Sequence record: MK327928.1
DNA: 64,000 nucleotides
Source: Escherichia phage vB_EcoM_G2133
Direction: 5' to 3' (one strand)
Made by a program: the position numbers and the translations under genes
The notes under the pieces: generated by a model
Databases searched by the model: none
What the model saw: the letters and a program-made list of their open reading frames with translations, nothing else
What the model was told of the DNA's origin: nothing
Shown here: positions 8,550 through 9,005 of the stretch, piece by piece
Layout: each line of letters opens with the position of its first letter
Numbering within the stretch: position 1 is the first letter of the stretch

Positions 8550-9005
8550 TTATTTTAAATCATCTGCCCAATCGAGTTTAAGAGGCTCTTTGTATTCACG
8601 ATCTAATACGACCGGAATTTGTACATCACCGCTAAATGATAAGGGCCCAACATTATAAGACAATGTTATATGCGGTGTGTAATCATCAAAATCATGTGTA
8701 GCACCTAGTGCCCGCGCATACATGTGTCGACAGCGCAGATATTCAGAATCTAGCACAAGTACAAGAGTCGATCCATCTTGTGTTTTCCATACTTCTAAAT
8801 GTCCAGAAGAAGCTACTTCAAAACTTCCGCTTGATGGAACATACGGAACATTTACTCTTGAATAACATATGGTCGAATGAATTTTTTCTCTAGGAACTGG
8901 ATTAGGAACACGTAAAGAGCGCTGAAGTTCTTCCAGCGCATCAAGTGTTAATTCTGAAAACTTAGCTGCTACATAAAGACCCGTTGAAAAGTCTTTAAAT
9001 TCCAT
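8550..9005 (-). CDS. 57B: 2H phosphoesterase, Acb1-like anti-CBASS cyclic-oligonucleotide phosphodiesterase (T4 gene 57B position)
   Basis: 151-aa ORF adjacent to 57A as in T4; two H-x-T motifs (HSTI near residue 43, HITL near residue 112) typical of 2H phosphoesterases. Confidence 0.7.

Follow-up and report, generated by a model that had tools for sequence, protein, structure and literature searches.

The acb1 gene of Escherichia phage vB_EcoM_G2133 encodes the T4 Acb1 sequence and adjoins a variable slot of internal-protein genes

We analysed a stretch of 64,000 nucleotides of Escherichia phage vB_EcoM_G2133 (sequence record MK327928.1; hereafter the window), with the focus on a 151-codon ATG-to-TAA open reading frame on the minus strand. 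Read along that strand, the order of features is gene 3, gene 1, 57A, acb1, a PeSL-type cassette, a gene for an 85-residue internal protein (Ip), a second PeSL-type cassette, a gene for a 77-residue Ip, trna.4, trna.2 and the tRNA cluster (Table 1). This is the order of the T4 map, with which Yersinia phage PST is also syntenic, except in the variable slot. The best DNA matches to positions 7300..10000 are Yersinia phage PYps32T (98.7%), phage HEMP5, T6 and PST. The phage is a Tequatrovirus. The first-pass annotation had placed the frame in the position of T4 gene 57B, and this placement holds: it lies directly downstream of gene 1 and 57A, and upstream of two internal-protein genes. The T4 locus likewise has gene 1 and 57A upstream, a PeSL cassette and an ip gene downstream, and a late-promoter motif in gene 1.

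Table 1. Positions in the window of acb1, its functional motifs and the genes and regulatory elements discussed in the text.
Feature	Position	Strand	Evidence or remark
Ip-leader gene	70..252	(-)	flanks denV
denV	259..672		
Ip-leader gene, 93 aa	732..1013	(-)	flanks denV, adjoins lysozyme gene e
Lysozyme gene e	1010..1498		
Internal virion protein gene, 77 aa (IpVI in Yersinia phage PST)	7912..8145	(-)	phrog_8111, E 2.2e-52
Second PeSL-type cassette, between both ip genes	8165..8219	(-)	TTTACA-17-TACTAT at 8206..8178, with hairpin
Internal head protein gene, 85 aa (IpV in Yersinia phage PST)	8220..8477	(-)	phrog_3499, E 1.2e-49
PeSL-type cassette, about 55 nt, directly 3' of acb1	8495..8549	(-)	repeat family, promoter scan, fold
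acb1 (57B), 151 aa plus stop	8550..9005	(-)	PF23474, 7T26/7T27, T4 identity
Second HxT motif, H112-I113-T114 (T4 numbering H113/T115)	codons 8664..8672	(-)	sequence and alignment
First HxT motif, H43-S44-T45 (T4 numbering H44/T46)	codons 8871..8879	(-)	sequence and alignment
57A, tail-fibre assembly chaperone	9005..9247	(-)	PF17594 GP57, E 6.6e-49
Gene 1, dNMP kinase	9247..9972	(-)	PF21448
TATAAATA, match to the T4 late-promoter consensus	9603..9610	(-)	inside gene 1, 356 nt upstream of 57A
Gene 3	10022..10552	(-)	

A Pfam scan of the 151-residue protein returned PF23474, 'Anti-CBASS protein Acb1', at E 2.6e-60 and 202.7 bits, where the gathering score is 27, with protein residues 8-149 aligned to profile positions 1-144 of 144, and returned no other family at E <= 0.1. 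A search of NCBIfam with the same protein yielded no family; that collection holds no Acb1 model. In a PDB sequence search, residues 8-148 matched 7T26 and 7T27, structures of the Erwinia phage FBB1 Acb1, at E 4.1e-62; weak matches (E 0.004-0.03) were to 9Q2G and 9Q2Y, a divergent Acb1 of 165 residues. All 151 residues are identical to residues 2-152 of T4 gp57B/Acb1 (NP_049750), with which the Acb1 family was founded, and a protein at least 99% identical is present in 498 of the 1470 phage records with a match, T6 among them.

At the nucleotide level, the 151 codons shared with T4 differ by four synonymous and no nonsynonymous substitutions. Two synonymous differences separate the gene from that of PST and one from that of PYps32T, again with none that change an amino acid, while the comparison with the 85%-identical PEi20 orthologue counts 71 synonymous and 23 nonsynonymous differences. 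One additional G>A substitution turns the T4 sequence ATGATGG into ATAATGG, so that the first of T4's two tandem ATGs is lost and only the second is present here; the same substitution changes the stop codon of 57A from TGA to TAA. As the start context is likewise ATAATGG in PST and PYps32T, the lack of the extra N-terminal methionine annotated in the T4 protein is almost certainly irrelevant. Identity with the T4 protein, combined with the synonymous pattern of divergence, indicates that acb1 is an intact gene on which purifying selection acts, and that its allele is the one characterised in T4. We consider it practically beyond doubt, from these comparisons, that the frame is acb1 (T4 gene 57B) and encodes the anti-CBASS protein Acb1 of a T-even phage. 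The description 'Acb1-like 2H phosphoesterase' in the first-pass annotation therefore understated the case, and the alignment to T4 Acb1 that it proposed as a check revealed complete identity (151 of 151 residues) and not a lack of homology. Two plus-strand open reading frames inside acb1, at 8708..8893 and 8722..8865, were rejected as by-products of the minus-strand gene: read in its frame, none of the substitutions relative to T4, PST and PYps32T changes an amino acid.

The protein contains two HxT motifs 69 residues apart, in agreement with the earlier description of two H-x-T motifs separated by about 70 residues. Taken alone, this pair is only moderately unlikely and constitutes weak evidence: shuffling the protein 100,000 times with its composition preserved gave two or more HxT motifs in 2.3% of cases, and in 0.6% the motifs lay 55-85 residues apart. 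It is homology, not the motif count, that is decisive. In an alignment of nine sequences (this protein, T4, PEi20, Serratia phage Muldoon, a Krischvirus, an Acinetobacter phage, a Vibrio schizo-T4 phage, Salicola phage SCTP-2 and the FBB1 crystal sequence), H43, T45, H112 and T114 are invariant at identities down to 32%, such that the HxT/HxT tetrad is kept in homologues from phages of Edwardsiella, Serratia, Escherichia (Krischvirus), Acinetobacter, Vibrio and Salicola. These residues correspond to the catalytic tetrad H44, T46, H113 and T115 of T4 Acb1 (Hobbs et al. 2022, PMC9117128), whose numbering equals that of the present protein plus one. The base-stacking residues Y12, W74, F107 and W147 and the adenine-reading E141 have been defined in the same T4 protein (PMC9117128), and its H44A/H113A mutant is inactive (PMC9117128; PMC12657230). 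All nine of these functional positions, catalytic, stacking and adenine-reading, are present in the phage analysed here.

For the fold of the protein we relied on the FBB1 orthologue, whose structures were determined in the apo state (7T26) and with 3'3'-cGAMP (7T27); a single-sequence AlphaFold2 model of the 151-residue protein reached a pLDDT of 37.9 and a pTM of 0.30, too poor for fold comparison. FBB1 Acb1 is 68% identical over 141 residues and conserves the catalytic tetrad and the C-terminal lid region. It is nevertheless an orthologue from another phage, and differs by a single-residue indel that follows the fourth strand region and at some stacking positions, such as T4 position 74, where it has F and not W. 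This level of identity across residues 8-148 lends indirect support to a 2H phosphoesterase fold that is compact and bears a C-terminal lid. The more distant structures 9Q2G and 9Q2Y, which represent divergent Acb1 or viral 2H phosphodiesterases, belong to the 2H family and align at the HxT motifs, but match only weakly in sequence. The preprint of Doherty et al. (2025) describes, in outline, viral 2H phosphodiesterases as having conserved active sites and a substrate specificity that varies with the 2H core. Thus, 9Q2G and 9Q2Y are no guide to the specificity of this protein, whereas T4 Acb1 is.

The first-pass annotation was right that T4 57B has been characterised as Acb1, which degrades the cyclic signals of CBASS: activity-guided fractionation traced a cGAMP-degrading enzyme to the 57B protein (PMC9117128). 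T4 Acb1 is a metal-independent 2H phosphoesterase that cleaves adenosine-containing cyclic di- and trinucleotides, including 3'3'-cGAMP, cUA, cAAA and cAAG, and does not cleave cGG, cA4 or 3'2'-cGAMP (PMC9117128). Lysates of cells infected with T4 lacking acb1 lose cyclic-nucleotide (cGAMP) cleavage, and the deletion phage shows a defect of more than 300-fold on CBASS hosts (PMC9117128). With a sequence identical to that of T4 Acb1, this allele has a substrate range that is already published; the earlier statement that it is not known was wrong, as the range, the residues that carry out catalysis and the phenotype in vivo have all been reported for the T4 protein (PMC9117128, PMC12657230). The acb1 gene of this phage is already known, and nothing is left open about acb1 itself.

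By the mechanism published for the identical T4 protein (PMC9117128), Acb1 would bind the cyclic di- and trinucleotide second messengers produced by CBASS CD-NTases and strain their ring, with the C-terminal lid closing over the bound nucleotide. An adenosine would then be rotated such that its 2'-OH attacks the 3'-5' bond, and the H/T-H/T tetrad would cleave this bond, 3' of the adenosine, by way of a 2',3'-cyclic phosphate intermediate. Release of the linear product would leave the signal linearised, so that CBASS effectors would never be activated and abortive infection would be prevented. With acb1 intact, the phage is predicted to evade those CBASS systems whose signals are cyclic di- or trinucleotides containing adenosine.

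Other adenosine-containing signals have to be considered as targets. T4 Acb1 cleaves cAAA, from which its discoverers proposed a possible evasion of type III CRISPR (PMC9117128), and it also degrades 2'3'- and 3'3'-c-di-AMP (PMC12657230); moreover, its expression can trigger the decoy-nucleotide system Panoptes (PMC12657230; PMC12657218). One could therefore envisage that acb1 in this phage is not primarily an anti-CBASS gene, that its main targets are signals such as the cA3 of type III CRISPR or c-di-AMP species, and that it may even be a liability via Panoptes. We judge this to be improbable: loss of CBASS evasion is the sole infection phenotype demonstrated for an acb1 deletion (PMC9117128), deletion of acb1 from T4 had little or no effect on Panoptes defence (PMC12657218), and an intact gene under apparent purifying selection argues for a net benefit. 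A wider set of targets extends the explanation of acb1 as an anti-CBASS gene and does not replace it, and Panoptes or other decoy-nucleotide systems may at the same time be able to detect the phage.

The gene has also been called an RNA ligase, both in the label of PHROG 755 and in the RefSeq records of T4, T6, PST and other phages, and the 2H HxT/S motif pair is common to Acb1 and LigT-type enzymes. An assignment as an RNA ligase, a LigT-like 2'-5' RNA ligase or an RNA-repair enzyme is nonetheless very improbable. The Pfam families for LigT and 2'-5' RNA ligases are unmatched even at E 0.1, and NCBIfam offers no such family either; the identical T4 protein degrades cGAMP, and its deletion sensitises T4 to CBASS (PMC9117128). 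RNA ligase activity of the T4 protein is not reported in PMC9117128, PMC12657230 or PMC12657218, and the label seems to have been transferred automatically on the basis of resemblance within the superfamily. Finally, a decaying or unexpressed remnant, for which the loss of T4's first ATG is the only argument, is effectively refuted by a full-length frame with purely synonymous substitutions and no amino-acid change relative to T4, by a second ATG that is kept in the overlap with 57A as in PST and PYps32T, and by the presence of the identical protein in hundreds of phage isolates.

The coding sequences of 57A and acb1 are directly joined, with the TAA stop of 57A overlapping the acb1 ATG as TAATG (junction sequence ...GAAGAATAATGGAA), which suggests translational coupling of the two genes. 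Within gene 1, the sequence TATAAATA matches the T4 late-promoter consensus, and the same motif lies at the equivalent T4 site (9006..9013 of the T4 sequence used). We infer that this motif is a candidate late promoter of a 57A-acb1 transcript, a reading consistent with the time course of T4 infection, in which Acb1 activity sets in at about 15 min (PMC9117128); the 'later gene expression' of Acb1 has also been remarked upon (PMC12657230). A scan for terminators returned no canonical intrinsic one behind acb1, and the hairpin at this point is a PeSL stem that overlaps a -10 element. An Rfam scan of 4500..10700 returned tRNA genes only and no RNA element overlapping acb1.

This hairpin belongs to a family of three repeats of about 70 nt each, at 7869..7939, 8165..8235 and 8495..8565. 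The copy that follows acb1 is nearly identical in T4 and combines an early-promoter-like TTTACA-17-TACTAT with a TG extension (8536..8508) and a 13-bp hairpin (8498..8527; fold -14.8 kcal/mol, z -2.6). The second cassette folds at -21.6 kcal/mol (z -4.9), and the third copy, at 7869..7939, keeps the hairpin (z -3.1) but is missing the TTTACA -35 part. In the promoter-bearing repeats, the hairpin overlaps the -10 element. PeSL elements of PST and T4 consist of a promoter with the consensus TTTACW-N17-TAYWAT and a stem-loop, and a role in the modular shuffling of variable genes has been proposed for them (PMC4122927). Both promoter-bearing cassettes fit this consensus and are located at the borders of variable ip genes, and by sequence and position we classify the repeats as PeSL-type mobile regulatory cassettes. 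The one after acb1 marks the border between a conserved block of gene 1, 57A and 57B and a variable ip slot, and shuffling through such cassettes would account for an acb1 that is invariant while the adjoining gene content differs between T4 and this phage.

In this slot T4 carries a single gene, ipI, whereas the present phage has two small ip genes. The 85-residue Ip is identical to PST IpV, and the 77-residue Ip is 95% identical to PST IpVI. Both share features with T4 Ip1, Ip2 and Ip3: an N-terminal capsid-targeting leader of the form MKT[YF][QK]EF (MKTFKEF... in the 85-residue and MKTYQEFIAE in the 77-residue protein) that aligns with the T4 Ip leaders, location in the hypervariable slot of ipI, and a PeSL-type promoter cassette of their own. 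They differ in their mature domains. The 85-residue protein matches T4 Ip1 over the leader only, and the 77-residue protein matches Ip1, Ip2 and Ip3 over the leader only; BLASTP alignments of the two with T4 Ips span 10-26 residues at E 1e-4 to 0.3 in a seven-sequence database, and no similarity of their mature parts to Ip1, Ip2 or Ip3 was detected. Neither protein has a Pfam, NCBIfam or significant PDB sequence match. A related pattern is seen at the denV/e locus, where T4 has ipII and ipIII. Of the two Ip-leader genes that flank denV here, neither encodes a protein that matches mature T4 Ip2 or Ip3, and the 93-residue product is 48% identical to the 85-residue Ip next to acb1. The phage thus appears to lack Ip1-3 at both ip loci of T4 and to carry four different Ips in their place.

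T4 Ip1 (IPI*), Ip2 and Ip3 are injected proteins, each of which inhibits a different GmrSD type IV restriction enzyme (PMC12373910), and Hobbs et al. described the adjacency of acb1 and ipI as an anti-defence island (PMC9117128). By analogy, the 85-, 77- and 93-residue Ips may be injected inhibitors of GmrSD-type or other defences with specificities unlike those of T4 Ip1-3, the first two occupying a PeSL-bounded swap slot by acb1; we put this forward tentatively, at somewhat less than even confidence. If it is true, the anti-restriction repertoire of this phage differs from that of T4. The proposal in the first-pass annotation of a compact anti-defence locus therefore stands in part: it has precedent in the acb1-ipI pair and in the action of T4 Ip1-3 on GmrSD, but does not carry over directly to the neighbouring genes, as both Ips match Ip1-3 in the leader only. 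These adjoining Ip genes are the only part of the acb1 locus where something new could be learned.

For acb1 itself, the value of the present assignment is annotational only: the function became known in 2022, yet most public records still give the gene another label. Nearly all of the phage records listed, RefSeq T4 included, name the identical acb1 'hypothetical protein' or 'RNA ligase', and a single sampled record (PP434423) says 'anti-CBASS protein Acb1'.

Several further features were noted around the locus. A 210-residue HNH homing-endonuclease frame (6662..7294, minus strand; phrog_14736, E 6e-124) is situated between tRNA-Leu (6569..6655) and trna.2 (7381..7668), where T4 and PST have tRNA-Gln; no tRNA-Gln was found by ARAGORN over 1..12000 or by Rfam over 4500..10700. 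The trna.3 gene (about 400-410 nt), which lies between trna.2 and trna.4 in T4, PST and PYps32T, is absent at 7668..7671, and this absence explains why BLAST matches fall into two pieces, between which the other phages have some 400 additional bases. Another homing-endonuclease frame, of about 219 residues and of the 'HHIIPK' HNH type (10659..11318, minus strand; phrog_655, E 9.5e-59), forms an insertion between genes 3 and 2, which in T4 have only a spacer of about 106 nt between them. Just beyond tRNA-Arg, ARAGORN reports a 94-nt 'tRNA-Lys (ttt)' at 5105..5198 on the minus strand that scores below the gathering score of the Rfam tRNA model; its position corresponds to the T4 small stable RNAs rnaD/rnaC, and it is probably a tRNA-like stable RNA, not a functional tRNA-Lys.
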